DNA of 64,000 nucleotides from Candidatus Omnitrophota bacterium (GTDB taxonomy: Bacteria; Omnitrophota; Gorgyraeia; Gygaellales; Profunditerraquicolaceae), in assembly GCA_041651115.1 (NCBI GenBank), contig JBAZJY010000001.1, positions 389,165 through 453,164 on the forward strand, given 5' to 3'. The notes below the pieces were generated by a model, which saw only the letters and a program-made list of their open reading frames with translations, was not told where the DNA came from and made no database searches. Shown here piece by piece: positions 7,186-50,513 of this stretch. Position numbers and translations under genes: made by a program. Every line of letters begins with the position of its first letter. The stretch's first letter is position 1.

Positions 7186-7197
7186 CAAAAGTAAGAT

Positions 7198-13489: not shown

Positions 13490-14385
13490 TCAGGATTATC
13501 CCGAAGCTGGAAATTAAAGGCCCTAATTTAGTAAAAGGCATCCATCTGGAAGGGCTAAGAGTAGTGGGCAATCCGCGGGATTACGCTGCCAGTTATTATC
13601 TGGACGGGGCAGATGAGCTTTTGTATATTGACGTGGTTGCCAGCTTATACGGCAGAAACAACCTGCTTGACATCATCAGCGAGACCGCAAAGAATATCTT
13701 TATTCCCCTTACGGTTGGCGGAGGAATAAGGTCGATTAACGATATAAATAATATTTTGCGTGCCGGCGCAGATAAAGTCGCGATAAATACTGCGGCAATC
13801 AATAGACCGGATCTGATTAAAGAAGCAGCCAATAGGTTCGGTTCTCAATGCGTAGTTATTTCGATTGAGGCAAAGCGAAGAGAAGGCGGCGGATATGAGG
13901 CATATACGGATAATGGGCGGGAAAGAACCGGGGTTGATGTTTTTGATTGGGCTAAAAAAGCCGTAGACCTGGGGGCAGGCGAGATATTGGTCACGTCCAT
14001 CGACAGGGAAGGAACAGGTAAAGGTATGGATGTTGATTTAATTTCCAAAATATCAGAATCCGTGCCTGTGCCGGTGATAGCCTGTGGGGGCGCAGGCTCC
14101 AAAGAGCATTTTCTTGAAGCAATCAATAAAGGCAAGGCTGACGCGGTTTGTGCTGCATCCGTCTTCCATTATCATCAGCTGTATTCTAAGGATATGGATG
14201 TCGAGTGTAAAAAAGAAGGTAATATAGAATTCCTGAGCAGGGATCAACGGGTCAGGAAGTTTTTGCCCAGCACGATCCAGCCTATGGATATACGGGAGCT
14301 AAAATCATTCTTAACAGAAGAAGGGGTATGCTGCCGGGTTCTTTTTAAGCAGAAGCAAGAAAGTGAAGTTAAGCATGACGCCTAA
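13486..14385 (+). CDS. hisF: imidazole glycerol phosphate synthase cyclase subunit HisF-like (WbuZ-type, glycan-associated)
   Basis: HisF (beta/alpha)8 motifs are present (IPLTVGGGIRS, VIACGGAGS). The protein is 299 aa with a C-terminal extension and sits with a HisH-like gene and a PP-loop amidotransferase. Confidence 0.8.
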   Translation: MIRIIPKLEIKGPNLVKGIHLEGLRVVGNPRDYAASYYLDGADELLYIDVVASLYGRNNLLDIISETAKNIFIPLTVGGGIRSINDINNILRAGADKVAINTAAINRPDLIKEAANRFGSQCVVISIEAKRREGGGYEAYTDNGRERTGVDVFDWAKKAVDLGAGEILVTSIDREGTGKGMDVDLISKISESVPVPVIACGGAGSKEHFLEAINKGKADAVCAASVFHYHQLYSKDMDVECKKEGNIEFLSRDQRVRKFLPSTIQPMDIRELKSFLTEEGVCCRVLFKQKQESEVKHDA

Positions 14386-15046
14386 GCAGAAGGTTACAGT
14401 AGCGGTAGTCGATTACGGGCTGGGCAATCTTTTTAGCATAGAACGCGCCTTGAAGCATATTGGAGCAGATTGCCTGATTACCGATAATAAGGATGCCATA
14501 ATTAATTGTGAACGCGTAATACTTCCAGGCGTAGGGGCTTTTGCCGATGCCATGAAAGGGCTTGAGGCTAAAGGCTTGATCGGCGCTTTAAACAAAATTG
14601 CCGAGAAAAAGGTGCCGCTTTTAGGCATTTGCCTGGGGATGCAGCTGATGATGACTGAAAGTGAAGAATTCGGCAGGCATAACGGATTAGGTTTAGTCTG
14701 CGGCAAAGTAGTGCGTTTGCAGGAAACGCCATCTTTAGAAGCAAGGACGAAGGTTCCTCATATCGGATGGAATACCATAAACGGCAGCGATGGTTCCCGG
14801 TGGGAGAAGACGATGTTAGAGGGTTTAGAAAACGGCGAGTTTATGTATTTCGTGCATTCATATGCAGTAATGCCCGATGAATATTCATGCGTGCTGGCCA
14901 CTACCACATATGGCAAAGATAAGTTTTGTTCCGTAATGGCAACCGGCAGTATCATGGGTTGCCAGTTCCATCCCGAGAAAAGCGCAGAAGCGGGTTTGGG
15001 CATATTGCGTAAATTTGTATTTAATAATTTTGATGGATACGCGTAA
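14375..15046 (+). CDS. hisH: glutamine amidotransferase HisH-like (WbuY-type)
   Basis: Class I glutaminase motifs are present (PGVGAF, GICLGMQLM, and the catalytic HPEKS). The ORF-track start at 14363 is GTG. The ATG at 14375 overlaps the hisF-like stop. Confidence 0.8.
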   Translation: MTPKQKVTVAVVDYGLGNLFSIERALKHIGADCLITDNKDAIINCERVILPGVGAFADAMKGLEAKGLIGALNKIAEKKVPLLGICLGMQLMMTESEEFGRHNGLGLVCGKVVRLQETPSLEARTKVPHIGWNTINGSDGSRWEKTMLEGLENGEFMYFVHSYAVMPDEYSCVLATTTYGKDKFCSVMATGSIMGCQFHPEKSAEAGLGILRKFVFNNFDGYA

Positions 15047-15062
15047 GGAGGTAAAGATCGGC

Positions 15063-16304
15063 ATGCCGAATAATAATCTACAGCCAAGATTTGGCCTTCC
15101 CCAGGAAGTAAAATTCTGTAAAAAATGCGTTATCTCTAATCAGCGCCCCTCATCTACGAATGAATACTTCCATACCAGGTCAACCAGGCACGATACGATA
15201 AAATTTGATTCCGAGGGGGTCTGCTATGCATGCAGGGTATGTGAAGCAAAGGATAAACAAATAGACTGGAAAGACAGGGAAAATCAGCTGAAGGAACTAT
15301 TAGCCCGCTATAGGAGTAAAGACGGCTCCTACGATGTCTTAGTGCCGGGTAGCGGAGGAAAAGACAGCACTTTTCAGGCCCATGTATTGAAATATAAGTA
15401 TGGGATGCATCCGCTTACGGTTACCTGGTCTCCGCATATCTATACGGATATAGGCTGGAAGAATTTTCAGAAGTGGATTTATCAGGGAGGGTTTGATAAC
15501 TATCTATTCACCCCTAATCCTAAAATACACAGATTATTGACGCGCTTGGCATTCGAGAATCTCCTGCATCCATTTCAGCCTTTTATTCTTGGGCAGAAGA
15601 CCTTTGCCCCAAAAATGGCGGCTAAATTCGGGCTCAAATTAATAATGTACGGCGAGATGCCCGGTGAATACGGGGCAGATGTACCTATTACGGAAGCTAA
15701 ATTTCGTACTACGGGATCTCCCAAAGAAGGTTTTTCTACCGACTATAAAGCTGGGAAAAATATAAAAGAATTATATCTCGGAGGATTACCCATAAATGAG
15801 ATAATGGATAAATATAAAGTCTCTTTTGGCGATCTGGATCCATATTTCCCTCTTGACCAGAATATCATAAAAGAAAACAATATCGAGTTTCATTATTTGG
15901 GCTATTATCTAAAATGGACGCCGCAGGAATGTTATTACTATTCCGTAGAGAATACCGGTTTTGAAGCGAATACCGAACGCACCGAAGGCACTTATTCAAA
16001 ATATAACAGCCTTGACGACCGCATAGACGGGTATTTTTATTACACCACCTTTATTAAGTTCGGCTTGGGCCGGGCAACCTACGACGCAGCGCAAGAGATA
16101 AGGAACCATCACCTTACCCGTGAAGACGGGGTTGCCCTGGTAAAGAGGTTTGACGGAGAATTCCCTAAAAAATACTTTAAGGAAGTGTTGGAATATATGG
16201 ATCTCACCGAAAAGCGCTTTTGGGAGATTATTGACGAGTTCAGATCACCGCATCTATGGGAAAAAACCGGCGGGGAATGGAAACTGAAACATAAGGTGTC
16301 ATAA
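15063..16304 (+). CDS. N-acetyl sugar amidotransferase (PP-loop ATP pyrophosphatase, WbuX/WbpG-like)
   Basis: An SGGKDS PP-loop sits in VLVPGSGGKDSTFQA, and there is an N-terminal zinc-ribbon-like KFCKKCV. A strong SD (taAGGAGGtaaagatcggcATG) precedes position 15063. The ORF-track start at 15015 is an in-gene extension. Confidence 0.75.
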   Translation: MPNNNLQPRFGLPQEVKFCKKCVISNQRPSSTNEYFHTRSTRHDTIKFDSEGVCYACRVCEAKDKQIDWKDRENQLKELLARYRSKDGSYDVLVPGSGGKDSTFQAHVLKYKYGMHPLTVTWSPHIYTDIGWKNFQKWIYQGGFDNYLFTPNPKIHRLLTRLAFENLLHPFQPFILGQKTFAPKMAAKFGLKLIMYGEMPGEYGADVPITEAKFRTTGSPKEGFSTDYKAGKNIKELYLGGLPINEIMDKYKVSFGDLDPYFPLDQNIIKENNIEFHYLGYYLKWTPQECYYYSVENTGFEANTERTEGTYSKYNSLDDRIDGYFYYTTFIKFGLGRATYDAAQEIRNHHLTREDGVALVKRFDGEFPKKYFKEVLEYMDLTEKRFWEIIDEFRSPHLWEKTGGEWKLKHKVS

Positions 16305-17372: not shown

Positions 17373-18360
17373 CTGGGCAAATAAAAAAGTTTTGGTCACG
17401 GGCGCCGGAGGTTTTATCGGAAGCCATTTATGCGAGCAATTGAGCCGGATGGGGGCAAATGTACGGGCAATGGTACATTATAACGCGTTGGGAAGATGGG
17501 GATGGCTGGATTACGCCGATACACGCGGCAAGTTGGATATTTTTCCCGGAGACATAACCGACCGGGACAGCGTATCTGAGGCAGTGAACGACCGGAGCAT
17601 TATATTCCATCTGGCGGCATTGATCAGCATACCTTATTCGTATGCCGCGCCTGAATCATATGTGCAGACGAATATCCTTGGGACGTTAAATCTTTTAGAA
17701 GCCGCGAAAGAAGCAAGAATCCGGCGTTTTATTCACACTTCTACCAGCGAGGCGTATGGAACAGCGCAGTATACGCCAATTGACGAAAACCACCCTTTGC
17801 GGGGGCAGTCGCCTTATGCTGCCAGTAAGATCGGTGCTGACAAGATCGCGGAAAGTTTTTATTGTTCGTTTGGCCTGCCGGTAGTGGTTGTGCGGCCGTT
17901 TAATACCTTCGGCCCGCGCCAATCGGCGCGCGCAATTGTCCCTGCCATAATAACTCAGGCTTTAAGCCGGAAAACAATAAAGCTGGGTGCCACATACCCA
18001 GTGCGCGACCTGAATTTCGTTAAGGATACGGTTTTGGGTATGATCGCGGCTGCTGAGTCGCCGGATAGCGCGTTAGGAGAAGTGTTTAATATCGGATCAG
18101 GCAGAGAGATCAGTATCCTTGAATTAGCTAATCTGATCATAAGGATGACCGGTAAAAAAGTGCGCATCAAAAGCATTTCGGAGCGGTTTCGGCCGAAAAA
18201 CAGCGAGGTAGAACGGTTACTGGCCGATACCGCGAAGGCGGCCAAGATACTTAACTGGCGGCCAAGATATACATTGGAGAGAGGGCTGGAAGAAACTGTT
18301 GCTTGGTTTAAACGGCCGGGAAACTTGGAATTATATAAAAGCGACCGTTATATAGTCTAA
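17347..18360 (+). CDS. NAD-dependent epimerase/dehydratase (nucleotide-sugar 4,6-dehydratase-like)
   Basis: VLVTGAGGFIGSHL Rossmann motif and YAASKIGADK (YxxxK) in an extended SDR of about 337 aa. An alternative ATG lies at 17359. Confidence 0.7.
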   Translation: MTQKMEKFNWANKKVLVTGAGGFIGSHLCEQLSRMGANVRAMVHYNALGRWGWLDYADTRGKLDIFPGDITDRDSVSEAVNDRSIIFHLAALISIPYSYAAPESYVQTNILGTLNLLEAAKEARIRRFIHTSTSEAYGTAQYTPIDENHPLRGQSPYAASKIGADKIAESFYCSFGLPVVVVRPFNTFGPRQSARAIVPAIITQALSRKTIKLGATYPVRDLNFVKDTVLGMIAAAESPDSALGEVFNIGSGREISILELANLIIRMTGKKVRIKSISERFRPKNSEVERLLADTAKAAKILNWRPRYTLERGLEETVAWFKRPGNLELYKSDRYIV

Positions 18361-18364
18361 AAAT

Positions 18365-19537
18365 ATGAAACCTGAACAATACTCGATCCCGCTTAGCGTC
18401 CCGGAAATTAAGGGGAATGAAATGCGCTATATAAAAAAATGTCTTGATACTAACTGGGTATCTTCAGCCGGGCGTTATGTCGATAGTTTTGAAAACAAGA
18501 TGCTAGGTTATATTGGAAGAAAATATGCGATCGCCTGCGTTAACGGGACAGCGGCTTTGCATATAGCGCTGCTGGCAGCCGGGATTAAGCCCGATGAGGA
18601 AGCGATTGTTCCCGCGTTGACTTTCGTAGCTACGGCAAATGTCTTGCGTTATGCCAATGCCTGGCCGGTTTTTATCGATGTCGAGCCGGATACCTGGCAA
18701 ATTGATGCGCAGAGGATCGCGGATTTTTTAAATAAAGAATGTGTTTGGAAAAATGGCCGTTTGATCAACCGCAATACCAGGCGGGCCATAAAAGCCATCA
18801 TGCCGGTCCACTTACTGGGGCATCCGGCAGATATGGGCCCCATTATGCGCCTTGCGCATAAGTTCGGCCTCCTGGTTATTGCTGATGCCGCACAAGGGTT
18901 GGGGGCGCTTTATAAAGGCCGTCATGCTGCCGGGTTTGGCGATATTGCCTGCCTGAGCTTCAACGGCAATAAAATAATTACTACCGGCGGAGGCGGGATG
19001 TTGCTTACCGATAGGCCGGAGTGGGCCAAGAGAGCGCGGTATCTCATTACTCAGGCGAGAGACGATTCTTCGGAATTTATCCATAACGAAGTCGGCTATA
19101 ATTATCGCTTGACCAATATCCAAGCGGCAATGGGTATTGCCCAAATGGAAAATATCGGTAAGCATATCACCAGAAAAAGATCTATTGCCCGGCATTATCA
19201 GGCCGGGCTTAAAGACATTCCCGGTATCCGCCTGCCGGTTGAATCCGTTTATGCCCGGTCGATCTTTTGGCTATATACGATCCGGATAAATAAGGTTAAA
19301 ACAGGGATCGGCAGCAGAGAACTGTTGCGTAAACTAAATGCCGGGGGTATTCAGGCCCGTCCTCTCTGGCATCCATTACATTCTTTGCGCCCATTTAAAA
19401 GATCTTATGCGTACCGGATAAAGGTAGCAAATGAATTATACCGCGATTGTTTAAGCCTGCCGTCTTCCGTGGGGCTGGCGCAAAGCGACCAGGATAAGGT
19501 TATTAACGTTATACGCGAATCAACCATAAAAAAATAA
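18365..19537 (+). CDS. DegT/DnrJ/EryC1/StrS family PLP-dependent aminotransferase
   Basis: The PLP-lysine motif is intact (CLSFNGNKIITTGGGGML). Length is about 390 aa. Confidence 0.85.
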   Translation: MKPEQYSIPLSVPEIKGNEMRYIKKCLDTNWVSSAGRYVDSFENKMLGYIGRKYAIACVNGTAALHIALLAAGIKPDEEAIVPALTFVATANVLRYANAWPVFIDVEPDTWQIDAQRIADFLNKECVWKNGRLINRNTRRAIKAIMPVHLLGHPADMGPIMRLAHKFGLLVIADAAQGLGALYKGRHAAGFGDIACLSFNGNKIITTGGGGMLLTDRPEWAKRARYLITQARDDSSEFIHNEVGYNYRLTNIQAAMGIAQMENIGKHITRKRSIARHYQAGLKDIPGIRLPVESVYARSIFWLYTIRINKVKTGIGSRELLRKLNAGGIQARPLWHPLHSLRPFKRSYAYRIKVANELYRDCLSLPSSVGLAQSDQDKVINVIRESTIKK

Positions 19538-20589
19538 TGCACTCAAACGATTGCCCAATATTCCGCCCTCAGCAGTTAGTTGAAAAAATAGTTATTGTCG
19601 ATGGGCAGCCTGGTTGCGGAAAAACAATGCTTTCCCCGATCGTCGCCGCCATGGAACGCGTTGAGCTTTTGACCTTTGCCTACGAGATTGAAGAAGTTTG
19701 CTCTCTGCGTTACCTAAAAAGGCTCGAGGATGATGTAGCAACAGCATTGATCAGATACTTCGCGGATTTAAAACTTTATAACATATCAATGTCCAGAGAA
19801 ACTAATTTCCGCTGCAGCGACGTTTCCAGCGTATTCCGCGACGCAAGGCCGTTGCGTTATCTTAAACGGTTATTCCAGAAAGGCGACATTGCCATACCGG
19901 AACAAATAAAACGCGAGAGGCCGATCCTGCATTTGGCTACACATGACCTTTTGCGCAGGTCAGAACCTGTCTTTTCTGCCTTTGGGAACAAGCTTGTGTT
20001 TATCGAGGTGGTCCGTCATCCGCTGTATATGCTTAAACAGGAAGAAATCAATGTGGGAATGGTCTTAGACCCGCGGCATTTCGAGGTTTATTACAAGCAT
20101 AAAAATAACTATTTTCCGTATTTTATTTTAGGATGGGAAGACTTATATCTTAAGGCCAACAGCATCGAAAGGGCTATTTATATGATTGAACACCTGACAA
20201 AACGCACCAATGCGTTCAAGGAGTCTTTTGACAATAACGCTATACGAGCGCAGGTGATCACCGTACCTTTTGAACGTTTTGTCATTAATCCCTGGTCGTA
20301 TATGGAGCAGATAGAAAGTACGCTGGAGACAAAGATAACTGCGATTACCCGCAAGATGATGAAAAAACAACGTGTCCCGCGCAGGATGTATGCCGAAGGG
20401 GTTGGATTAAAGATCTACAAGCGCTGTGGGTGGGAGCCGCCGAAACGCGGATCGGATGAAAATAAGGAATTTGCTTTACGCCGGGCATTTGCTAAGGAAC
20501 GCGGCGCGTCGCAGGAAGCCATGGATATTCTAGACAGGCTCAGCGCCGATTACGAGATCAAATACCTCGACGGTAAAAAGACATACTAG
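19537..20589 (+). CDS. hypothetical P-loop protein (putative kinase or sulfotransferase-like)
   Basis: A Walker-A-like VIVDGQPGCGKTMLS motif is present. No other motif was recognised. The stop/start is TAATG. Confidence 0.35.
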   Translation: MHSNDCPIFRPQQLVEKIVIVDGQPGCGKTMLSPIVAAMERVELLTFAYEIEEVCSLRYLKRLEDDVATALIRYFADLKLYNISMSRETNFRCSDVSSVFRDARPLRYLKRLFQKGDIAIPEQIKRERPILHLATHDLLRRSEPVFSAFGNKLVFIEVVRHPLYMLKQEEINVGMVLDPRHFEVYYKHKNNYFPYFILGWEDLYLKANSIERAIYMIEHLTKRTNAFKESFDNNAIRAQVITVPFERFVINPWSYMEQIESTLETKITAITRKMMKKQRVPRRMYAEGVGLKIYKRCGWEPPKRGSDENKEFALRRAFAKERGASQEAMDILDRLSADYEIKYLDGKKTY

Positions 20590-20603
20590 TAAGGAGGCTG
20601 GTG

Positions 20604-21266
20604 ATGAAAACAGTGGCTTTGGTTCCCGCAAAACTCAAGAGTGACCGGGTCCCCTTCAAAAATATAAAAAAGCTGGGCGGCATACCCCTGGTTAACTATA
20701 CTATGCGCACCTTAAATAAGGTAAGCAACGTTGACGAGATCGTGATCTTTGCCTCAGAGCCGTCGATTTGCGACCATATACAGCGCGGTTTAAAATATAG
20801 TTTTTTACAGCGCCCCAACAGCCTGGATACGCAGGAAACAAGTATCCAGGATATTATCGGGGAGTTTTTGAAAAAGAGTGATGCCGATATGGTTGTTTTA
20901 TACCACATCACATCGCCCTTTCTGAAGGCCGAGACCGTGTCGGAATGCGTCCAAAAAGTCGTTTCGGGAGGATACGATTCCGCCTTTACCGCGTACGAAA
21001 TAAAGAAATTCTGCTGGTTTCGCGGTAAGCCGTTAAATTATTCTTTTGACGCCCCGACTCCGCGCACTCAAGACATAGATTCAGTCATAGTCGAACAAGC
21101 AAGCCTGTACGTATTCAAAAGGGAGGTCTTTGAGAAAACCGGACAAAGGATATCCGCTAACCCGTACATTAAATATATCGACCATTTTGAAGGGCATGAT
21201 ATCGATACGCCTGAAGATTTCCGCGTCGCGGAATTAATCGTCAATACCGGCCTTTTTACTTTCTAA
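20604..21266 (+). CDS. CTP_transf_3 family cytidylyltransferase (KdsB/NeuA/PseF-like)
   Basis: VALVPAKLKSDRVPFKNIKKLGGIPL resembles the VALIPAR.xS.RLPgK motif of the family. A strong SD (taAGGAGGctggtgATG) precedes it. The ORF-track start at 20601 is GTG. Confidence 0.7.
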   Translation: MKTVALVPAKLKSDRVPFKNIKKLGGIPLVNYTMRTLNKVSNVDEIVIFASEPSICDHIQRGLKYSFLQRPNSLDTQETSIQDIIGEFLKKSDADMVVLYHITSPFLKAETVSECVQKVVSGGYDSAFTAYEIKKFCWFRGKPLNYSFDAPTPRTQDIDSVIVEQASLYVFKREVFEKTGQRISANPYIKYIDHFEGHDIDTPEDFRVAELIVNTGLFTF

Positions 21267-21275
21267 GGATCGCTG

Positions 21276-22415
21276 ATGAAACAAGAACCCTTTTTAAAAA
21301 GATACCCCGTGCATTTGGATAACCACGCGTATGATATTATTGTCGGCAAAAATTTCCTTTTTGATAATATGCGTGCGATTCTGGAAGAAAAGATAAAAAA
21401 TAAAAATATATTTGTGGTTTTTGATGCGGTTTTCAGCAACAAAGTCTACGACCGGCTTATAAACCCTCTTTCAGAATCCGGCTACCGTATCTACGCGTAC
21501 CCTATGGTTTCCGGCAAGCAGAATAAAACGATCAGCGAGGCGATAAAGATATATGAGCTCCTTGAGCTGAATGAGCTTTCCCGCGATTCGACATTGATCG
21601 CTTTAGGAGGAGGGGTTGTCGGCGACCTGGCAGGCTTTGTCGCCAGCACGTATCTGCGCGGGATTAATCTCATCCACATACCGACAACGCTTACCGCAAT
21701 GATCGACAGCAGTATCGGCGGCAAGGTCGCGATAAATTTCCGCAAGACAATCAATGCCATCGGTAATTATTACCATCCGGTCATGAATGTCATTGATTTA
21801 GAGTTTACCGAGTCATTGCCTCAGCGCGACTTTAAGGCAGGGCTGTCGGAGATCATAAAATGCGCGGTCATTTCCGATAGAGAGTTATTTGAATACCTTG
21901 CCGCTAACAGCACAAAAATACTGGCCCGCGATGAAGAGGCGCTGTTGCGCATCATGATCCGCGCGATGGAAATAAAATTAGACCATGTTCGCGGAGATGT
22001 CAGAGAAAGCGGCAAAAGGCTGAAGTTGAATCTCGGCCATACCATCGGCCATGCGATTGAAGTTTCTACCGACGTCCTGGAGGAATTATACCGGCATGGC
22101 GAGGGCGTAGCGCTCGGGATGATCGGCGCGGCATTTTTGGCAAATGAATATTTCCGGAAAAACGGGGAAGTTTTAAAATTACACGAAGATATTTTATCGC
22201 GCTATGGGCTTCCGTTAAGGGTGGAGGCGGCAAAGGCCGGTTTCAACCGGAAAAATTTGATTGAAGAATGCATGGCGAATATTTATAGAGATAAAAAGAA
22301 GGCGAACGGCGAGCTGCGGTTTATTTTCCCGAGGGAGATCGGGCATTGCGAAATATGCCATGGCATCGAAGACGACCTGATAAAGCAGGCATTTAATTAC
22401 CTTATACAGGAGTGA
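21276..22415 (+). CDS. 3-dehydroquinate synthase family protein (DHQS / sugar-phosphate cyclase-like)
   Basis: [46 protein letters not shown] is almost collinear with E. coli AroB ([46 protein letters not shown]). The metal-binding [12 protein letters not shown] matches LNLGHTFGHAIE, and the C-terminal [16 protein letters not shown] matches LRDKKVLAGEMRLILP. Confidence 0.75.
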   Translation: [379 protein letters not shown]

Positions 22416-22417
22416 AA

Positions 22418-23179
22418 ATGGCTAAAAAATATCTGCTGAAAAACAAAGTTTGCATCGTTACGGGGGCCGGAAAAGGGATCGGAAGAGAAATAAGCAGGCT
22501 TTTTTATGAAGAAGGGGCGAGCCTGGCGCTGATTACCCGGAATCAGCAGGATTTAAAAGCACTTAATGACGAATTAGGCTTTGACGATAAACGCACGCTC
22601 CTTTATGGCGGTGACGTATCCGATCCGGCGACGGTTAAGCGATTTATCGCGAAAGCTATAAAGAAATTCGGAAAGATCGACGTCCTTGTCAATAATGCCG
22701 GTATGCGTTTCCGTAAGCCTTTTCTTGCGATTACCAGCAGGGAATGGGATAAGGTAATCGTTAATAACCTTAAAAGCGTTTACCTTCTATCGCAGGAAGC
22801 CGGCCGGAACATGGTTTTAAATAAAAACGGCAAAATTATAAACATCAGTTCAATCATAGGAACCCTTGGTTTGCCGGAATTATCCGTATACGGAGCTTCA
22901 AAGGGCGGAGTAATCGCTTTTACAAAGTGCCTGGCATTGGAATGGGCAAAATATAATATCAACGTGAATGCTGTTGCCCCGGGATTTTGTGAGACTTCAT
23001 ACGCAGAGAACTTTAAGAAAAGAAAAGAATTATACAGATTTACCCTTGAAAGAACACCCCAGGGGAAGTGGGGCACGCCGTTAGATATTGCAAACGCATG
23101 CCTTTTCCTATCAACTGAAGCTTCACGTTATATCACAGGAGAAATATTAAATGTCGATGGCGGCTGGAGTGCGTGGTAA
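22418..23179 (+). CDS. SDR family oxidoreductase (FabG-like)
   Basis: CIVTGAGKGIGREI and YGASKGG motifs, with an SD aggag 7 nt upstream of the ATG at 22418. The ORF-track start at 22412 is GTG. Confidence 0.8.
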   Translation: MAKKYLLKNKVCIVTGAGKGIGREISRLFYEEGASLALITRNQQDLKALNDELGFDDKRTLLYGGDVSDPATVKRFIAKAIKKFGKIDVLVNNAGMRFRKPFLAITSREWDKVIVNNLKSVYLLSQEAGRNMVLNKNGKIINISSIIGTLGLPELSVYGASKGGVIAFTKCLALEWAKYNINVNAVAPGFCETSYAENFKKRKELYRFTLERTPQGKWGTPLDIANACLFLSTEASRYITGEILNVDGGWSAW

Positions 23180-24671
23180 GCGGGACCTTAAGATACTGTT
23201 CATTTACCCAAATTTAATGCTGCAGACAACTTTTCCTTTGTCTATTGCGATCTTCTCCGCAATTTTAAAACAACGCGGTTTCCATACCGATATCTTTGAC
23301 ACGACTTTTTACCGGACCGAAGAGGTATCCTCAGATGAAAGCCGGGTGGAAAATCTTCAGATTGCCAAGTTTAACCTCGATGATGAATTTAAAAAACTAA
23401 AAAGCAAAGATGACCTGTTACGTGACCTTGAATCTAAGATCAGGGAATACCGTCCCGGGCTCATTGCTTTTTCGGTGCTCGAAGACCTTTGGCCGCTGAC
23501 GCTGGAGCTATTGAGCGTCACCGGTAAATTCAATATCCCTACGGTTGCCGGAGGGATTTTCCCTACTTTTGCGCCGGAAAAAGTAATCGCCGCCAAGGGG
23601 ATTGATATGGTCTGCGTGGGCGAAGGGGAAGAGCCGATCCTGGAGCTTTGCGATCAGATCGATAACGGCTCAGATTATACGCGTATACCTAACCTCTGGG
23701 TTAAAAAAGGCGGCGAAATCCATAAAAATCCTCTTCGCCGGCTCAGGGACCTGAACCTCAACCCTCCGCCGGACTTTTCTCTTTTTGACGAACGGCGGTT
23801 TTATAAACCGATGAAGGGGCGGCTTTACCGGATGGGCCTGGTAGAGACTAACCGTGGCTGCCCCTTTACCTGCGCATTTTGCAATTCCTACGCGCAGTCG
23901 CGGATCTATCAGGAGGAAAGAGGCGAAAGGTATTTTCGTAGCCGCGACATCGGGGTAATCCATGATGAAATAAAACTTTTAATTGATCGCCATAAAGTAG
24001 AATTCATTTATTTTCCTGCCGAGGTTTTCCTGTTCATGAATAAAGAATATATGCGGGAATTCGTAGAGATGTATAAAAAATTCCGCCTACCCTTCTTTTG
24101 CCAGAACAGGGCAGAGGTGATCAACGAAGAAACTGCCCGGCTGCTGGAAGAAATGAACTGCCATGGCTGCGCCATCGGCATTGAACATGGCAACGAAGAA
24201 TTCCGGTATAAAATGCTTAATAGGAAAGTTTCCAATGACACGTATCTGAAGGCGATCAAATGCCTGGAAAAAACAAAGGTCAAGGTTTCCGTAAATAATA
24301 TCGTGGGTTTCCCGGACGAAACGCGCGAACTCGTATTTGATACGATAAACCTGAACAGGAATTTTACCGCCTATCAGATCAATGCTTATTACTATACGCC
24401 ATACCACGGGACAGGGCTGCGGGAATATTGCGTTACCAAGGGGTATATTGCCAAAGACGCGCAGACCACCTATGTTACCAAAGATACGACCTTGAGCATG
24501 CCGGGCCTTTCGCCCAGCGCAATCAGGGGGTTAGTGCGTACTTTTACCCTCTATGCGAGATTGCCGAAAGAGCGTTACCCGGAAATCGCCGTAGCCGAAC
24601 GTTTCGATGAAGAAGGAAATAGAAAATTCAAGGAACTTCAGCTTGAATATTGGAACAGGTATTTAAAATAA
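23151..24671 (+). CDS. B12-binding domain radical SAM protein
   Basis: An N-terminal cobalamin-binding-like domain (ILFIYPNLM...) is followed by a radical SAM CxxxCxxC (NRGCPFTCAFC). The start is uncertain between ATG 23151, ATG 23157 and GTG 23169. Confidence 0.8.
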   Translation: MSMAAGVRGKRDLKILFIYPNLMLQTTFPLSIAIFSAILKQRGFHTDIFDTTFYRTEEVSSDESRVENLQIAKFNLDDEFKKLKSKDDLLRDLESKIREYRPGLIAFSVLEDLWPLTLELLSVTGKFNIPTVAGGIFPTFAPEKVIAAKGIDMVCVGEGEEPILELCDQIDNGSDYTRIPNLWVKKGGEIHKNPLRRLRDLNLNPPPDFSLFDERRFYKPMKGRLYRMGLVETNRGCPFTCAFCNSYAQSRIYQEERGERYFRSRDIGVIHDEIKLLIDRHKVEFIYFPAEVFLFMNKEYMREFVEMYKKFRLPFFCQNRAEVINEETARLLEEMNCHGCAIGIEHGNEEFRYKMLNRKVSNDTYLKAIKCLEKTKVKVSVNNIVGFPDETRELVFDTINLNRNFTAYQINAYYYTPYHGTGLREYCVTKGYIAKDAQTTYVTKDTTLSMPGLSPSAIRGLVRTFTLYARLPKERYPEIAVAERFDEEGNRKFKELQLEYWNRYLK

Positions 24672-24672
24672 G

Positions 24673-26748
24673 ATGACCCGGATATATTTTATCGAATACC
24701 TCACGCTGGGGAAATGGCTGTTTTATGTCCTTCCCGCGCTGGTCCGCGGCAAACTGCTTAGAAAAATAACGGCCGGGAAGGTTTATTTTATTGATGCTTC
24801 TGGCCCGGGAAAGTTTATCAGCCGCCTGGCGGGCGGTTTTTTATATCGCAGTATGGAAAGGCTTGATTTCAATCTTTTTGACATTAAGGACGATACGGGC
24901 CTGCTCGTATACCTGCGCATTGCTTATTTTGATGCCGCCCGCCTGCAAAAAAATATATTCCAGCGGCCAATTTTTAATATGTTCCGTCCTTTAAAAACCC
25001 GGCTGCCCACCTATCTTAGCAGACAAATCGTATTTAGCGGGCTTCATGCAGATACGCTCGTACGTGCCCAATTCTTAGTGCAGTTAACTGCCTGGAAAAT
25101 AAAAAGTGAAACTACGCGCAACTCTCAACCATCGCCAGTACTATTTTTAAACAATCGTATATGGCAGGATGAAATAATCGAGTGCGGAAAGGAACACGGC
25201 GTTGAAATTTTATTCACCGGGCCGGGCAAATTCAACTTTCGGGATTTCTTCAAGCGTATCGGAGGCACAAAGGCAAAATTATTACAAAGCTTATATTATT
25301 TTATCAAGCGCCGTGGGCCCATAGCGCTCTGCCGGCAATTCGCGAACAGAAAAAAGATAGGGAATAACGCTGATCCTGTGCCAAAAATCGCAGTAGAATT
25401 ATTGAGTTACCTTAACCTTGACCGGCCGGAACTTTATTCCGATGTCTTTTTTTGGCAGCAATCAAAGCTACGGGGAGAAGACATAACGATTATCTATAAT
25501 AACAGGCGGGTCCCGCTGAAAAGGTACGCTTGGGATGAGATTAAGAAATTTAAGATGTCCGCAATCGCCATGAATCCCTATTCTACGCACGTGGCTGAAA
25601 TGCCGGTTTTTTATCATTTGCCAGGTATAAAAGACCGCAGGAAACCCGATCGTCATGTATTGCCGATATGCCGCAGGCAGGAAAAAAGATGGTTGAAATC
25701 TCAACTCGCGCATTATTATTCTCTTTGCGCCTATTGGCACGATCTTTTTCGGCAAACTGATGCTAAAGTATTCATTAGCTGGTTTAAATACAGCGCAGAT
25801 CATTGCGCGATCGCAGATGCCATGGAAAGGGCGGGAGGCGTTACGGCAATCTACCAGCGTGCTTATGAAGAATTCCCTTCGCCGGAAACAACGATTGCCA
25901 GCGATATCGTCTTTGGTTTTTCCGGAAAGAACGCTGAAATCGAACGCCTTTCAGGATCAAAAATACCTTATTTTGTCGTTACCGGTTATTTTCGCGACCA
26001 TTCCTTTGATTTGTTGAAGAATGAATCATTGCGGATACGGGATAAGATAAAACGCTGCGGCGCAGAAAAAATCATTGCGTATTTTGATGAGAATTCTGAC
26101 AGCGATCAGCGCTGGCATTCTTCACATGCGGATGTACAAAAAAATTATGCGTTTTTACTTGAGAAAGTTATCAGAAACCCAAAAATCGGGCTGGTTATCA
26201 AGCCAAAGGTACCGGCAACATTAAGAAAACGGTTAGGCCCGGTAGCAGATACCTTGAAAGAGGCTGAAAACACCGGCAGGTGTTTTATTTTTGAGGAAGG
26301 GATCCCGCACGGTTCTTATCCGCCGGCAGCGGCTGCTTTAGCCTCGGATGTAGCGATCCACGGCTACCTTTATGCCGCAACCGCAGCAATGGAATCTGCG
26401 CTGGCCGGTATACCGACCATACTCCTGGACCAGGAAGGCTGGCATGTGAGCCGGCTTTATGCATTAGGCACCGGCAAGGTGGTATTTGTTACCTGGGAGC
26501 ACTTGTGGGATACCTTGACGAGGTATTTAAAGGATCCCGGCAGTATCCCGGGCTTCGGGGATTGGTCGCCTGTTCTTAATGATATAGACCCCTATCAGGA
26601 CGGAAAAGCCGCAGAAAGAATAGGAGGATACCTGCAGTGCCTTCTGGATGGATTTAAAGCGGAATTATCGCGAGAAAAAGTCCTCGCTGATGCGGCTGAA
26701 AAGTATCGCTCGGCATGGGGCAAAGATAAGGTCATTTCAATCTTATGA
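24673..26748 (+). CDS. hypothetical protein, putative GT-B fold transferase
   Basis: The C-terminal IPHGSYP ... ASDVAIHGYLYAATAAMESALAGIPTILLD resembles the GT-B donor-domain motif (hhS..E..G..hEAhA.G.P). This is motif-level only. Confidence 0.3.
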   Translation: MTRIYFIEYLTLGKWLFYVLPALVRGKLLRKITAGKVYFIDASGPGKFISRLAGGFLYRSMERLDFNLFDIKDDTGLLVYLRIAYFDAARLQKNIFQRPIFNMFRPLKTRLPTYLSRQIVFSGLHADTLVRAQFLVQLTAWKIKSETTRNSQPSPVLFLNNRIWQDEIIECGKEHGVEILFTGPGKFNFRDFFKRIGGTKAKLLQSLYYFIKRRGPIALCRQFANRKKIGNNADPVPKIAVELLSYLNLDRPELYSDVFFWQQSKLRGEDITIIYNNRRVPLKRYAWDEIKKFKMSAIAMNPYSTHVAEMPVFYHLPGIKDRRKPDRHVLPICRRQEKRWLKSQLAHYYSLCAYWHDLFRQTDAKVFISWFKYSADHCAIADAMERAGGVTAIYQRAYEEFPSPETTIASDIVFGFSGKNAEIERLSGSKIPYFVVTGYFRDHSFDLLKNESLRIRDKIKRCGAEKIIAYFDENSDSDQRWHSSHADVQKNYAFLLEKVIRNPKIGLVIKPKVPATLRKRLGPVADTLKEAENTGRCFIFEEGIPHGSYPPAAAALASDVAIHGYLYAATAAMESALAGIPTILLDQEGWHVSRLYALGTGKVVFVTWEHLWDTLTRYLKDPGSIPGFGDWSPVLNDIDPYQDGKAAERIGGYLQCLLDGFKAELSREKVLADAAEKYRSAWGKDKVISIL

Positions 26749-27689
26749 TGGTTACCGCGACCGCCGTAAATGAGTTTATTGCACGCCGGAAAAGAAGCGT
26801 TTCAAATATATGCTTCCGGACTTTTGCCAAAATCCGCCGGCTTCCTTCGGAAGTCTGGATAGAGAATACGAATATCTGCAACGCAAGTTGCGTAATGTGC
26901 CCGCGCGAAAAACTCACCCGTAAAACCGGTTTTATGACACTTTCCCTTTACGAAAAGATCATAAAAGAGATATCGCGGTTCCCGAATGAGGTGCAACGGG
27001 TGCACCTGCATAATTATGGCGAGCCGCTGCTTGATAATATGCTGGTAGAGCGGATTAGGATCGCAAAAGAGAGCGGCATAAAACAGTTATATTTTGTGAC
27101 GAACGCTTCAGCATTGGTTCCGGAACTTTCAGAAAAAATAATCCGCTCCGGCCTTGACGAATTTAAGGTCAGCTTTTACGGGACTGATAAAGCCACGTAT
27201 GAAAATACCATGCGCGGGCTTGATTTTGATAAGACTATCCGTAACATCCGGGAATTTTTCCGGATCCGGAAAATGCTTAATGCGGACAAGCCAAGGGTGA
27301 TCATACAGTATGTTCCGCAAGAATCCAATGGGGCGCAAGTATCCGAGTTTACGAATATCTTTCAGCCGCTCATTGACCATTCCCTGGGAGACCGCCTTTC
27401 GGTATTTTCCCTGCATGACTTCGGCGGCGGCAGGGATTATTGCGATGCGCGTTTAAAACGGATATCCCGGATCTGCCGGTATCCGTGGCGGACTATGGTC
27501 ATTCTCCATGAAGGCACCGTAGCATTATGTTGTTTTGATTTTGACGGAAAGCAAACAACAGGGAATATGCAGGAATCCACTATTGAAGAAATCTGGAATA
27601 ACAAAAGGTATAGGCAGACACGGGAGGATTTTAAGAAACTTAATTACAGGGATTACCCGGTTTGCCTAAAATGCAATTATATCCGTTAA
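26745..27689 (+). CDS. radical SAM / SPASM-like protein (paralog of 110..1174)
   Basis: NICNASCVMC is a CxxxCxxC motif, the C-terminal region is Cys-rich (CCFDFDG...CLKCNY), and the protein is collinear with the first CDS. The start overlaps the upstream gene as ATGA. Confidence 0.7.
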   Translation: MMVTATAVNEFIARRKRSVSNICFRTFAKIRRLPSEVWIENTNICNASCVMCPREKLTRKTGFMTLSLYEKIIKEISRFPNEVQRVHLHNYGEPLLDNMLVERIRIAKESGIKQLYFVTNASALVPELSEKIIRSGLDEFKVSFYGTDKATYENTMRGLDFDKTIRNIREFFRIRKMLNADKPRVIIQYVPQESNGAQVSEFTNIFQPLIDHSLGDRLSVFSLHDFGGGRDYCDARLKRISRICRYPWRTMVILHEGTVALCCFDFDGKQTTGNMQESTIEEIWNNKRYRQTREDFKKLNYRDYPVCLKCNYIR

Positions 27690-27691
27690 AA

Positions 27692-28426
27692 ATGCTTACG
27701 AAGGCACTTACCAGGCTGCGCCGCCTAACGATTGATTGTTCGCGGCTATTGCTTTTTTGGAAGCCGGATTTCCTCTGGCTGTATAAGAACCGTTATCTCC
27801 GGATGGATGCTAATGTGGCAACGAATGATAAAAAGCGCAGGTTGTTTCATAAAGACCGGTATTTATTTGCCCGTGACTATTTGAAAAACTCCGGCAGAGA
27901 CGGCATCCGGATATTAGATGCTGCCTGCGGCACCGGATATGGATCAGACATCCTAAAGCAAGCCGGGGCACAGATCGTCGGCATAGATATTTGCCCGAAA
28001 ACTATCGAGTTCGCGGGGAAAAAATATGGCAGCGAAAAATGCAGGTTTATGGTTTCGGACGTATTGACGATGGGCCGGCTCGCGGATTTTTCGTTTGATG
28101 CGGCCGTATCGTTTGAAACTATTGAACACATTGATAATCCCCTGGCGTTTTTAAGTAATCTTTACCGGGTTTTAAAAAAAGATGGGGTGTTAATCATATC
28201 GACCCCCAATGACTGGGGAGAAACAATTTATCATAAGTTCAATTATAACTATCAATTATTCCGGCAGCACCTGGAAAAATTCTTCGCTATTGAAGAGATC
28301 TATACCCAAAACAGCGGAAGCATGGACCTTTGGGTAAACCGTTCCGCGCCCAGAAGAATAATAAAAACCTCTGAAGAAAATAAAAGCCAGGCGGAATGCT
28401 TTATTGCGGTATGCCGGAAGGCCTAA
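27692..28426 (+). CDS. class I SAM-dependent methyltransferase
   Basis: Motif I (ILDAACGTGYGS) and post-I/II motifs (VLIISTPN). The ORF-track start at 27662 is TTG inside the upstream gene. The ATG at 27692 lies 2 nt after the upstream stop. Confidence 0.65.
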   Translation: MLTKALTRLRRLTIDCSRLLLFWKPDFLWLYKNRYLRMDANVATNDKKRRLFHKDRYLFARDYLKNSGRDGIRILDAACGTGYGSDILKQAGAQIVGIDICPKTIEFAGKKYGSEKCRFMVSDVLTMGRLADFSFDAAVSFETIEHIDNPLAFLSNLYRVLKKDGVLIISTPNDWGETIYHKFNYNYQLFRQHLEKFFAIEEIYTQNSGSMDLWVNRSAPRRIIKTSEENKSQAECFIAVCRKA

Positions 28427-28439
28427 CTTATCTATTAAA

Positions 28440-30281
28440 ATGACCCGCGTTATTTACTCACAAGACAGCGAAGCGATCGTCAAATATTGCGTAAGCCGCC
28501 CTGCCGATAAGCCGCGCTTATTTTTACGCCATAATTTTTCTGCGCGGGAACTTGATCTTTTGCAAGGCGCCGGGGGCAACGAGCTAAAAACCAGAGAATT
28601 GTCGGAAGAAGAGGTATTGCGATGCGAAAAAGAATACGTGGAAGGAGTAGGCCGGCTAAGCCGGGAATTGAATTCACCCGAATGGTGGGCTAACCCTATC
28701 TCTGAAAAAAATGAACACCTGGATACCGTATACCGAAGGCTCTGTTTTTTATATGCCGCGGAAATATCAATAAACGATTGCCGGGAAGGCGATAAAGAGC
28801 TATTGATCTGCGGGAAAGGCATATCGTTTGCGGTCATAAAACCGCTTATTGAGGGCAAAGGAATGAAATCTCTCTGCGTTGGGCAAACCGCGCAGTTCTT
28901 CATTGGCCGCCAGCGTGAAAAACTGATAGATTTTATAAGGCTCGCCCGCTTGCTCATGGTAATGCTTAAACGGAAAATCACGCTTTTATTTACGTTAAGA
29001 TCAGAAATAAAAAAATATCTTGCCGCGAACAAAGATCTTTATGTTATAAGGACCTGGTTGGACAGGCGATTTTTATCCGCGGAGAACTATCGAAACGATG
29101 CCTATTTTGGCTCCCTGCCATATTCTGCAATAGAACGCGGCAGAAAAGTAGTCATTCTAGGGGGAATAATCAATAGTTTCGGCGAAATAATAAAGAAATT
29201 AAAAACGGAAAGGCTCTTGTTTTTTGTCATCCCGGAAGAATTTTTCCTCGGCATAAAGGAGGTTTTTTGCCTGCCGGTAAAATACCTGCTCTATTCAGGA
29301 AACGTTAAACTAAACGGAAAAATATTTTTCATGGGATTGGATGTTACGGAATTTTACCGCAGCGAAATTAAAAGGCTTAGCCGCAGCAGCGAATTCATAA
29401 AAAACATTTTTTATTATCACCTTTCAAAGCGGCTTGCGCAAAGTATGCGTCTCGATACGTATGTCCATACCTTTGAAAATTACGCCTGGGAGAAACTGGC
29501 TATCCTCGGTATCCGCGAAGGCCGGCCGGGGGTAAAAATTATCGGATTCCAGCATGCGTTTATTTCCCGTAATTCTTTTAAATATTTTCCCGGCGGCCCG
29601 GAAAAAGGCATTATGCCTTTACCCGATAAAATAGTCAGCCTTGGTAAGCGGACTTTTGAAATATTAAAAAAATACGGTAATTTTGATCATGAAATCATGG
29701 AAATCGGCTGCGCCCTTAGACAGGAATACTTAAACAATTTGCCGCTAAAGCCGCGCCGCCGTTCCGGCAAGATACTGGTGCCGCTTTCTATGGCAAAGGA
29801 TGAATCCGCGCGTATTTTACGATTTATTACCGGGTCAGGGCTCTCCCAAACCGGCCTTCGGGTCATTATCAGGTGCCATCCTGCCCGGCCTTTTAGCGCA
29901 TTCCGGAAATTGATCGATTTTTCCTTACCGGGGAATTTCCTGATCGAAAACACAAAGAATATTAAAGATGAATTGATCGATACGGATATCCTGCTGTATA
30001 CATGGTCAACCATCGCAGCAGAATCATTAGCGGCAGGCGTACCCGCGGTCTATATGGACATACTCAGGCCGATGAGCGTCGACCCGCTTTTTGAATGTGG
30101 CGTATTTAAACGGACAGTCAGTAAAAGCAACGAACTAGTGCCGGTTATAAACGGATTCTATACCATGGCGGATGCGGATTTTGAAAAAGAGAGGCGGTTG
30201 GCGCGGGAATATATAAAGGAATATTTTTATCCGGTTGTCGAAAATAATCTTAATCCATTTTTCCCGGATGTGCTAAAATAG
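28440..30281 (+). CDS. hypothetical protein, putative HP-motif GT-B transferase (TagF/CMP-sugar transferase-like)
   Basis: VIIRCHPARP (HP motif) is followed by DTDILLYTWSTIAAESLAAGVPAVYMD, which resembles the TagF ITDYSS...P donor-domain motif. The ATG at 28440 lies after the upstream stop. 28404 is an in-gene extension. Confidence 0.35.
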   Translation: MTRVIYSQDSEAIVKYCVSRPADKPRLFLRHNFSARELDLLQGAGGNELKTRELSEEEVLRCEKEYVEGVGRLSRELNSPEWWANPISEKNEHLDTVYRRLCFLYAAEISINDCREGDKELLICGKGISFAVIKPLIEGKGMKSLCVGQTAQFFIGRQREKLIDFIRLARLLMVMLKRKITLLFTLRSEIKKYLAANKDLYVIRTWLDRRFLSAENYRNDAYFGSLPYSAIERGRKVVILGGIINSFGEIIKKLKTERLLFFVIPEEFFLGIKEVFCLPVKYLLYSGNVKLNGKIFFMGLDVTEFYRSEIKRLSRSSEFIKNIFYYHLSKRLAQSMRLDTYVHTFENYAWEKLAILGIREGRPGVKIIGFQHAFISRNSFKYFPGGPEKGIMPLPDKIVSLGKRTFEILKKYGNFDHEIMEIGCALRQEYLNNLPLKPRRRSGKILVPLSMAKDESARILRFITGSGLSQTGLRVIIRCHPARPFSAFRKLIDFSLPGNFLIENTKNIKDELIDTDILLYTWSTIAAESLAAGVPAVYMDILRPMSVDPLFECGVFKRTVSKSNELVPVINGFYTMADADFEKERRLAREYIKEYFYPVVENNLNPFFPDVLK

Positions 30282-50512: not shown

Positions 50513-50513
50513 T

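Follow-up and report, generated by a model that had tools for sequence, protein, structure and literature searches.

The 64,000-nucleotide stretch of Candidatus Omnitrophota contig JBAZJY010000001.1 that was analyzed (hereafter, the window) carries ∼60 open reading frames (ORFs), all on the + strand, in an uninterrupted array of flat composition (43%–49% GC). Pfam and NCBIfam scans of nearly all of these ORFs identify a surface-polysaccharide locus, with an ABC exporter, Wzy_C, Bac_transf, WecG, and numerous GT2 and GT4 glycosyltransferases, together with dTDP-sugar, GDP-sugar, and heptose genes. A first-pass annotation of the sequence had singled out five genes between 19537 and 24671 as a module: a Walker-A (P-loop) protein, a cytidylyltransferase of the KdsB/NeuA fold, a member of the 3-dehydroquinate synthase (DHQS) family, a short-chain dehydrogenase/reductase (SDR), and a cobalamin-dependent radical S-adenosylmethionine (SAM) enzyme. 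ORF calls and the domain scans recover all five at exactly the coordinates it gave, on the + strand and, for the last four, with the domains it named:

19537–20589, + strand: sulfotransferase-fold protein of 350 aa with a Walker-A-like GQPGCGKT motif, the fold taken from an AlphaFold2 (AF2) model and Foldseek
20601–21266, + strand: NeuA-like CMP-transferase of a distinct conserved type, here called CT2 (CTP_transf_3, 65.6 bits against a cutoff of 22.6)
21276–22415, + strand: DHQS (AroB-clade) paralogue, the signature enzyme of the cassette (DHQ_synthase, 131.9 bits; DHQS_C, 113.7 bits)
22412–23179, + strand: classical SDR ketoreductase (adh_short_C2, 219.9 bits), with the ATG at 22418 as its probable start
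23151–24671, + strand: class B radical-SAM enzyme with a B12-binding domain (PF02310, 44.1 bits; PF04055, 65.9 bits) and the CxxxCxxC motif CPFTCAFC

The close translational packing and the strong Shine-Dalgarno sequence described earlier were also recovered. Intergenic gaps in this interval are 11, 9, and 1 nt, two junctions overlap, and position 19537 is a base shared with the stop codon of legC. AGGAGG lies 6–9 nt 5′ of the cytidylyltransferase start, and AAGGA precedes that of the DHQS paralogue. Promoter-like and terminator-like sites in the window were no more frequent than in shuffled sequence, and the region therefore reads as one operon. The five genes are thus real, but the conserved unit is smaller and consists of the cytidylyltransferase, the DHQS paralogue, and the SDR; in the window the module continues downstream to ∼30281.

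The DHQS paralogue is collinear with AroB through the NAD, metal, and substrate sites when aligned to the DHQS of V. cholerae, to other solved DHQS structures, and to E. coli AroB. The residues of all three sites are present, which upholds its earlier assignment to the true sugar-phosphate cyclase family. It shares fold and length with AroB (TIGR01357; 3OKF, 6LK2, and 1DQS). Against TIGR01357, the aroB equivalog model, it scores 310.9 bits where the cutoff is 305, a marginal pass by 6 bits. In a phmmer search of the PDB, V. cholerae DHQS scored 200.9 bits, 2-deoxy-scyllo-inosose synthase (DOIS) 106.2, the 2-epi-5-epi-valiolone synthase (EEVS) ValA 99.7, and desmethyl-4-deoxygadusol synthase (DDGS) 87.1. 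DOIS (BtrC, 2D2X), EEVS (ValA, 4P53), and DDGS (5TPR) are likewise DHQS-superfamily enzymes recruited outside aromatic amino-acid synthesis. In published comparisons of active sites, the carboxylate-binding Lys and Arg are replaced in these neutral-sugar cyclases. Both residues are retained in the paralogue (K234 and R248), so a carboxylated ulosonate phosphate is to be expected as substrate and not a neutral sugar phosphate. A cyclase of the DOIS, EEVS, or DDGS type was dropped on these grounds, given scores of 87–106 bits against 201 bits to DHQS.

The active site was examined in an alignment of 34 family members with 72 housekeeping AroBs from metagenomes and E. coli AroB. All positions that are at least 90% conserved in the 72 housekeeping enzymes are invariant in the 34 family members. 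The invariant set comprises R128, D144, K150, N160, E192, K195, K234, R248, N252, H255, H259, H274, and K340/341 (in E. coli, R120, D136, K142, N152, E184, K187, K226, R240, N244, H247, H251, H264, and K323/324; in A. nidulans, presumably R130, D146, K152, N162, E194, K197, K250, R264, N268, H271, H275, H287, and K356) and covers the zinc ligands, the phosphate binders, and the carboxylate binders. By sequence, the paralogue is a genuine member of the DHQS family, and its active site is intact. What sets the clade apart from AroB is a signature of E81K, H155F, G158T, F165Y, Q167H, Y196C, and A249L with two short insertions, mostly kept in remoter relatives at 39%–47% identity. Residue 81 is Glu in 99% of the housekeeping AroBs compared and Lys in 97% of the glycan-associated clade. 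E81K (at the position of E. coli E73) is the sole change among the NAD, zinc, phosphate, carboxylate, and catalytic residues tested against E. coli AroB. The Glu at this position is one that we take to bind the NAD ribose in DHQS structures, and its replacement by Lys possibly hints at a switch from NAD to NADP.

A search of 5.8 billion proteins returned homologues of ∼377 aa at 46%–64% identity from Omnitrophota, Zambryskibacteria of the Candidate Phyla Radiation (CPR), Ignavibacteria, Brocadiaceae, Deltaproteobacteria, Saganbacteria, Margulisiibacteriota, and metagenome-assembled genomes of Actinobacteria. Wherever the source supplies a name, it is "3-dehydroquinate synthase" or a variant. 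The clade was monophyletic in 50 of 50 neighbor-joining bootstraps; the tree has no outgroup, so that the clade may be nested within AroB diversity. Identity is 47%–90% within the clade and 27%–40% to 73 housekeeping AroBs, which have a median of 43% among themselves. The cyclase thus forms a clade separate from housekeeping AroB, with the limit set by the missing outgroup. The family is also set off by a gap in scores: among 8,501 DHQS-like representatives at E ≤ 1e-30 in a library of 1.84 billion representatives, only ∼4 representatives of clusters formed at 50% identity exceed 330 bits. One DHQS-like representative at 37% identity (P0352) has lost carboxylate and phosphate binders (K234T, R248G, N252Q, and D144H) and is likely a member of another sugar-phosphate cyclase subfamily near the clade.

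Thirteen independent loci of family members were collected, 12 of which were scored in a matrix of companion genes. Source assemblies include GCA_021735655.1, GCA_001824105.1 (Zambryskibacteria), GCA_016234935.1, GCA_016218085.1, and GCA_024223855.1. A CTP_transf_3 cytidylyltransferase and a classical SDR flank the DHQS paralogue in every one of the 13, across at least eight lineages that include CPR (two from Omnitrophota, with Saganbacteria, Zambryskibacteria, Brocadiaceae, Deltaproteobacteria, Ignavibacteria, Margulisiibacteriota, and others). The neighboring SDRs are 57%–72% identical across the 13 loci. The cytidylyltransferase is of the CT2 type in 11 of the 12 scored loci, and in the Zambryskibacteria locus a KdsB-like enzyme takes its place. 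The order of the genes varies (CT-DHQS-SDR, DHQS-SDR-CT, or SDR-DHQS-CT, where CT is the cytidylyltransferase), which argues that the combination itself is selected. Every family locus is a glycan cluster, with Wzx, Wzy, ABC transporters, glycosyltransferases, or Maf, and one (L097) is an island for flagellin glycosylation that encodes a Maf protein.

For comparison, 80 housekeeping aroB loci were taken from a metagenome scan matching generic DHQS motifs; a scan of genome contigs with a single protein had given one locus only. CT2 was present at none of the 80 control loci, and aroK lay nearby in 43. No aroK was found within 8–10 kb on each side in the nine family sequences searched directly, one from the window and eight from other loci; for the remaining family loci, the Pfam annotations over the same span include no aro gene. 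The enzyme therefore lies outside an aro context, as had been anticipated, and in the loci examined it is always beside a CMP-transferase and an SDR. The CT-DHQS-SDR arrangement is more than chance (13/13 family loci against 0/80 controls). These comparisons make it very improbable that the gene is a housekeeping aroB that happens to lie in a glycan operon. The score just above the TIGR01357 cutoff and the complete set of catalytic residues would suit such a gene, but not the same two neighbors in all loci across phyla, nor the tight monophyletic clade, in which identity across phyla reaches 47%–90%. The name given to these proteins in the databases, together with the pass of the window copy at the aroB cutoff, may lead to an excess of shikimate-pathway calls in reduced genomes.

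The CT2 protein falls below the cutoff of every equivalog of KdsB, PseF, and NeuA or other nonulosonic acid (NulO) cytidylyltransferases: it scores 76.3 bits against PseF (cutoff 205.7), 44.1 against the kdsB-type model NF003952 (193), and 22.7 against TIGR00466 (155.2). Among solved structures, mouse CMP-Neu5Ac synthetase (1QWJ, E = 3e-14) comes nearest to it. The CT2 enzymes of the scored loci are 41%–80% identical, mostly 61%–80%, the latter being the range for orthologues in other phyla. The DID Mg site, the carboxylate-binding Arg of the PRxQ motif, and the equivalent of Tyr179 are retained. The sugar-binding Gln104 of the Neisseria meningitidis CMP-sialate synthetase corresponds to His102, which is invariant in 14 CT2 sequences, and Phe192/193 of the N-acetyl pocket of CMP-sialate synthetases are not retained, in an alignment that is weak at this point. 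The earlier description as a KdsB/NeuA-fold cytidylyltransferase stands for the fold, with NeuA-like features, but the protein is not KdsB, given a best kdsB-type score of 44 bits against 193. Tandem CT2 paralogues occur in three loci (L007, L091, and L096). The nearest families of the SDR are FabG, glucose 1-dehydrogenase, gluconate 5-dehydrogenase, and KduD, and it groups with keto-sugar-acid reductases. Its ITRN motif after β2 is typical also of NADP(H) users.

CMP-activated ulosonic acids such as Kdo and the sialic, legionaminic, and pseudaminic acids have a central place in the surface chemistry of bacteria and in their mimicry of hosts. The known pathways to them combine a synthase with a phosphatase or hydrolase and a cytidylyltransferase. 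The Kdo and sialic acid pathways (KdsA-KdsC-KdsB; NeuB-NeuA) would share with the present cassette the end point of a CMP-3-deoxy-2-ulosonic-acid-like donor formed by a CTP_transf_3 enzyme. They differ from it in that the cassette has no phosphatase, and a DHQS-type enzyme of the phosphate-eliminating kind and a ketoreductase accompany the cytidylyltransferase. Modules that synthesize or tailor CMP-ulosonic acids are known as a kind; the recruitment of a DHQS-type enzyme is new. KdnB, which acts with KdnA in Kdo8N tailoring, is a precedent for an enzyme of the DHQS superfamily (of the iron-dependent alcohol dehydrogenase type) modifying Kdo. Full-text literature searches turned up no paper in which a DHQS or a sugar-phosphate cyclase is tied to O-antigen clusters, to cytidylyltransferases, or to nonulosonic, legionaminic, or pseudaminic acids, and the earlier view that the combination is unlike described pathways accordingly holds for that literature. 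The three enzymes probably make an undescribed CMP-activated acidic sugar or carba-sugar. Such a residue would be either a carbocyclic acid or the product of a new terminally deoxygenated ulosonic route, and the cassette that encodes it is spread over Omnitrophota, CPR, Margulisiibacteriota, Saganbacteria, anammox bacteria, and others. The genes of the trio are small and contiguous, which makes the question directly testable.

What the data show directly are the gene identities, the clade and its intact DHQS site, the conserved adjacency, and the glycan context; the choice of substrate, the sequence of reactions, the product, and its transfer are deduced, like all functional statements made here, from sequence, fold, and context. 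Retention of the full AroB set of substrate-binding residues favors 3-deoxy-D-arabino-heptulosonate 7-phosphate (DAHP), or a close heptulosonate 7-phosphate, as substrate. The reading we tentatively prefer, short of even confidence in it, is that a mobile core makes a CMP-activated, nonstandard acidic residue for a NulO-rich surface glycan by DHQS chemistry on a DAHP-like substrate. The DHQS paralogue would act canonically on DAHP or a very close analogue, through transient NAD(P)+ oxidation at the zinc-bound carbinol, β-elimination of phosphate, re-reduction, ring opening, and aldol closure, to give a carbocycle of the 3-dehydroquinate type. The SDR would then reduce the ring ketone to a quinate-like 1-hydroxy-1-carboxylate, a carbocyclic mimic of the pyranose of a 3-deoxy-2-ulosonic acid. 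On this product, the NeuA-like cytidylyltransferase would form a CMP ester at the tertiary C1 hydroxyl, which is sterically like the anomeric hydroxyl of Kdo or Neu5Ac. The residue would be installed by two glycosyltransferase B (GT-B)-like proteins of 691 and 625 aa encoded downstream and tailored by the sulfotransferase-fold protein, the B12 and SPASM radical-SAM enzymes, and methyltransferases.

A carbocyclic (cyclitol-like) or otherwise rearranged keto-acid had been proposed as the product in the first-pass annotation. The position of the enzyme with true DHQS speaks against a C7-cyclitol and for a dehydroquinate-like, carboxylated compound; that it is a carbocycle at all we infer. In favor of carbocycle formation are the pass at the aroB cutoff and the score to solved DHQS, twice those to DOIS, EEVS, and DDGS, together with the Mg site and carboxylate Arg kept in the cytidylyltransferase and the grouping of the SDR with keto-sugar-acid reductases. 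Two loci (L005 and L098) contain no NeuB or other NulO synthase within 8–10 kb on either side, which suggests that the precursor is a primary metabolite. Several observations weigh against this scheme. Its weak point is the donor itself: a tertiary carbon that lacks a ring oxygen makes a poor glycosyl donor, there is no precedent for displacing CMP from such a carbon, and CMP-dehydroquinate would readily eliminate to dehydroshikimate. Neither the window nor any of the related loci yielded a DAHP synthase. The clade-specific changes near the active-site motifs (the signature apart from E81K) could signal a different substrate, and His259 is replaced by Gln in some distant members. Furthermore, the NulO or Kdo genes present in most loci suit a longer ulosonate substrate equally well. 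The wider proposition, that many uncultivated phyla divert DAHP into a CMP-activated quinate-like "carba-ulosonic acid" for surface glycans by way of novel GT-B enzymes, is more doubtful still. If true, the compound would be the first nucleotide-activated carbasugar of primary surface-glycan biosynthesis and would imitate Kdo or sialic acid while resisting hydrolysis; a carbocyclic product, if real, would be categorically new.

A longer ulosonate could be handled by the same fold without ring closure. The DHQS paralogue would then apply its oxidation, phosphate β-elimination, and re-reduction to the ω-phosphate of a longer 3-deoxy-2-ulosonate, for example 3-deoxy-D-manno-octulosonate 8-phosphate (KDO8P) or a nonulosonate 9-phosphate. 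Aldol closure being impossible there, the enol would tautomerize to an (ω-1)-ketone with a terminal methyl group. Reduction of the ketone by the SDR and activation would yield a CMP-ω-deoxy ulosonic acid, such as an 8-deoxy-Kdo-like compound, that ordinary GT-B transferases of the sialyl or Kdo type could use. This terminal deoxygenation is appealing chemically, as all steps after the lyase reaction are normal for NeuA/KdsB-type cytidylyltransferases and glycosyl transfer, and the role of the SDR is defined. The configuration at C5–C8 of KDO8P is the same as that at C4–C7 of DAHP. The gene content of some loci also agrees with it. The Saganbacteria locus (L002) has bona fide KdsA (320.7 bits against a cutoff of 314) and KdsB (246 against 193) 6–8 kb downstream of the trio, and the Ignavibacteria locus (L091) has KpsF (292 bits against 203.7); the KdsB-like enzyme adjoining the paralogue in Zambryskibacteria and the NeuB-type synthases in seven of the 12 loci point in the same direction. 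Also counted on this side is a domain like fructose-6-phosphate aldolase/transaldolase (FSA-like), fused to a KpsF-type CBS pair, which is encoded inside the Saganbacteria cassette; the fusion and the two Kds genes lie at 14766–15788 and 18289–19865 of that locus. Nevertheless, we regard terminal deoxygenation as somewhat less likely than carbocycle formation. The invariant binders of the DAHP carboxylate and phosphate imply an unchanged distance between the two groups, and the pyranose of KDO8P has no free hydroxyl at the carbon that needs to be oxidized. The products of the bacterial NeuB and PseI enzymes of these loci are unphosphorylated, and no phosphosugar synthase is conserved alongside the trio.

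A third possibility is raised by the genes directly upstream, which encode a legionaminic acid (Leg) pathway of the GDP type and, farther from the module, a second set of three:

8148–9146, + strand: Gfo/Idh/MocA protein (Pfam), Ela-like set
9032–9856, + strand: CTP_transf_3 cytidylyltransferase (Pfam), Ela-like set
9853–10656, + strand: SDR (Pfam), Ela-like set
from 11325, + strand: NeuB, legionaminic acid pathway
from 12332, + strand: Epimerase_2, legionaminic acid pathway
from 16305, + strand: CBS-NTP_transferase, legionaminic acid pathway
from 17347, + strand: LegB (TIGR04180, 438 bits, slightly below the cutoff of 475)
from 18365, + strand: LegC (TIGR04181, 452.7 bits against a cutoff of 420)

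A 2026 structural study of A. baumannii KL49 describes ElaB as a CTP-transferase, ElaA as an NADP-dependent Gfo/Idh/MocA protein, and ElaC as an SDR, and proposes that the three form a mobile cassette for turning CMP-Leg5,7Ac2 into the 8-epimer (PMC13656337). Systems of the ElaABC or PtmF-PtmB-PtmA type have the same three-part layout as the module studied here (a cytidylyltransferase, an NAD(P) enzyme, and an SDR), are horizontally mobile, and are attached to the Leg pathway. They differ in that ElaA is a Gfo/Idh/MocA protein where the present trio has the DHQS paralogue (PMC13656337), and an ElaABC identity for the trio was ruled out for this reason; the label fits the upstream set at 8148–10656 instead, which matches ElaABC in composition and adjoins NeuB and Epimerase_2. 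Two further Gfo/Idh/MocA genes start at 6190 and 7198. The ORF at 9032 probably begins farther downstream than called, given its 115-nt overlap with the preceding gene.

The trio could still be a functional analogue of ElaB, ElaA, and ElaC in which the DHQS fold replaces Gfo/Idh/MocA. The cytidylyltransferase would make a CMP-nonulosonate of the Leg or pseudaminic acid (Pse) type, the DHQS paralogue would serve only as an NAD(P)+ dehydrogenase of one of its carbinols, and the SDR would reduce the resulting ketone from the opposite face. Beyond the layout, which resembles that proposed for the formation of 8-epi-Leg5,7Ac2 (PMC13656337), this epimerization draws on the Leg genes directly upstream in both the window and the second Omnitrophota locus (L003), on bona fide PseI in two loci (L008 and L090) and a homologue 89% identical to the L008 PseI in a third (L095), and on the loci with tandem CT2 paralogues. 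It is slightly less likely again, however. The full set of phosphate- and carboxylate-binding residues, all invariant here, would be superfluous in a plain dehydrogenase, and in the window the Ela-type set already supplies the Leg pathway with a cytidylyltransferase of its own. The two loci without a nearby NulO synthase and, as far as the weak alignment allows, the loss of the N-acetyl-pocket phenylalanines in CT2 also argue against it.

NulOs carry highly diverse N-acyl and O-substituents. The DHQS paralogue and the SDR might accordingly make a non-sugar substituent derived from quinate or shikimate, with the cytidylyltransferase activating the NulO that bears it. The canonical-looking DHQS site would be explained in this way. 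Such a division of labor is improbable, because the trio has no conserved partner of the CoA ligase, ATP-grasp, or acyltransferase type, and the strong conservation of CT2 along with the DHQS paralogue (61%–80% identity) points to one shared pathway.

The proteins on either side of the trio vary more from locus to locus. The 350-aa protein upstream had been taken for a P-loop member of the module. It gave no match to Pfam (including the sulfotransferase models), NCBIfam, or PDB sequences and belongs to a family of >880 uncharacterized proteins. Its AF2 model, built from a 43-sequence alignment, has a mean predicted local distance difference test score (pLDDT) of 92.5, and the top 50 Foldseek matches in the PDB are all sulfotransferases that use 3′-phosphoadenosine 5′-phosphosulfate (PAPS), with TM-scores of 0.4–0.5. 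The best match was TPST2 (E = 6e-7), followed by mycobacterial Stf9, Stf1, SULTs, and heparan 3-OST, and a P-loop kinase identity was ruled out by this uniform result. GQPGCGKT and VVRHPLY, read by eye only, resemble the 5′-phosphosulfate-binding (5′-PSB) and 3′-phosphate-binding (3′-PB) motifs. Homologues accompany the module in two of 12 loci, the window and L003, both from Omnitrophota, which removes the protein from the conserved core. On the predicted model, we read it as an accessory tailoring enzyme with a sulfotransferase fold.

The cobalamin radical-SAM enzyme downstream has the B12-binding and Radical_SAM domains expected of it, along with a CxxxCxxC motif, but it is not a fixed member of the module. 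Homologues occur in six of the 12 loci, at 59%–60% identity in L007 and L091. Its best NCBIfam matches (BchE and the PhpK family) are all far below cutoff, with no equivalog reached; it is probably an accessory tailoring enzyme, a C-methylase. Four further genes follow it in the window:

24673–26748, + strand: GT-B-fold protein of 691 aa (AF2 and Foldseek), candidate transferase for the CMP-activated product
26745–27689, + strand: radical-SAM/SPASM protein (Radical_SAM, 50.5 bits; SPASM, 61 bits) with the motif CNASCVMC
27662–28426, + strand: SAM-dependent methyltransferase (Methyltransf_11, 81.5 bits)
28404–30281, + strand: protein of 625 aa with an RCHP motif and a remote relation to the C-terminal half of GT-B enzymes, second candidate transferase

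The 691-aa protein had no Pfam, NCBIfam, or PDB-sequence match. Its AF2 model (pLDDT 90.1) matched GT-B proteins in Foldseek with E values from 1e-6 to 1e-4 and target-normalized TM-scores of ∼0.5–0.6, among them UDP-GlcNAc 2-epimerases, the polysialyltransferase 5WCN, TagF, Cps3, and SPY. A GT-B-fold protein thus directly adjoins the module, in agreement with the GT-B enzymes that had been noted nearby, and its family is present in eight of nine loci examined. The 625-aa protein had no Pfam or PDB match and has homologues in eight of the 12 loci; a family of ∼643 aa lies directly upstream of CT2 in seven of 12. Over the C-terminal ∼130 residues, these two are related with an hhalign probability of 92.9% (E = 3.6e-7), and their relation to the 691-aa family is weaker (54.6% for the 625-aa protein, E = 1.2e-4, and 29.8% for the ∼643-aa family). 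Three related families of GT-B-like proteins of ∼600–700 aa are therefore frequent companions of the cassette. Homologues of the SPASM radical-SAM protein occur in eight of the 12 loci, and methyltransferases in nearly all related loci. In butirosin synthesis, BtrC is accompanied by the radical-SAM enzyme BtrN, and the SPASM/twitch-type companion of the DHQS paralogue is a point of likeness to that system.

Several of the related loci contain unusual genes next to the trio. In L099 (1–3285), a relative at 42% identity, an SDR-DHQS-CT trio lies beside PEP-utilizer/PPDK_N, GATase, and NTP_transf_3 genes, a set that resembles the O-methyl-phosphoramidate genes of Campylobacter (Cj1418, Cj1417, and Cj1416); a weak Glyphos_transf match and a 2-oxoglutarate/Fe(II) (2OG-Fe(II)) oxygenase are also present. 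In L091 (12092–14385), an NTP_transf_2/HepT toxin-antitoxin pair comes directly after the trio, and after it the B12 radical-SAM enzyme is split into a B12-binding ORF of 97 aa and a Radical_SAM ORF of 353 aa. Between the two CT2 paralogues of L096, upstream of the DHQS paralogue, are an HMGL-like protein of the pyruvate carboxyltransferase family (574 aa) and a PfkB kinase (6383–9181), an insert that may hint at precursor supply in that lineage.

Within the window, the interval 13486–16304, between the NeuB and epimerase genes and the guanylyltransferase, holds a HisF-like gene (His_biosynth), a HisH-like gene (GATase), and an ORF of 429 aa without a Pfam match, for which a 50% identical orthologue was found in L003; all three are counted with the Leg pathway, and the layout fits an acetamidino modification of the Leg5Am type. 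Besides the B12 radical-SAM gene at 23151, the locus has three separate radical-SAM/SPASM genes (29–1174, 26745–27689, and 51070–52137). The last of the three belongs to a heptose-type module (48977–53450) with an HldE-like fusion of PfkB and CTP_transf_like domains and a GmhA-like SIS protein. This module also contains a transketolase split into two halves (52139–52972 and 52875–53450), which are unusual within a glycan operon.

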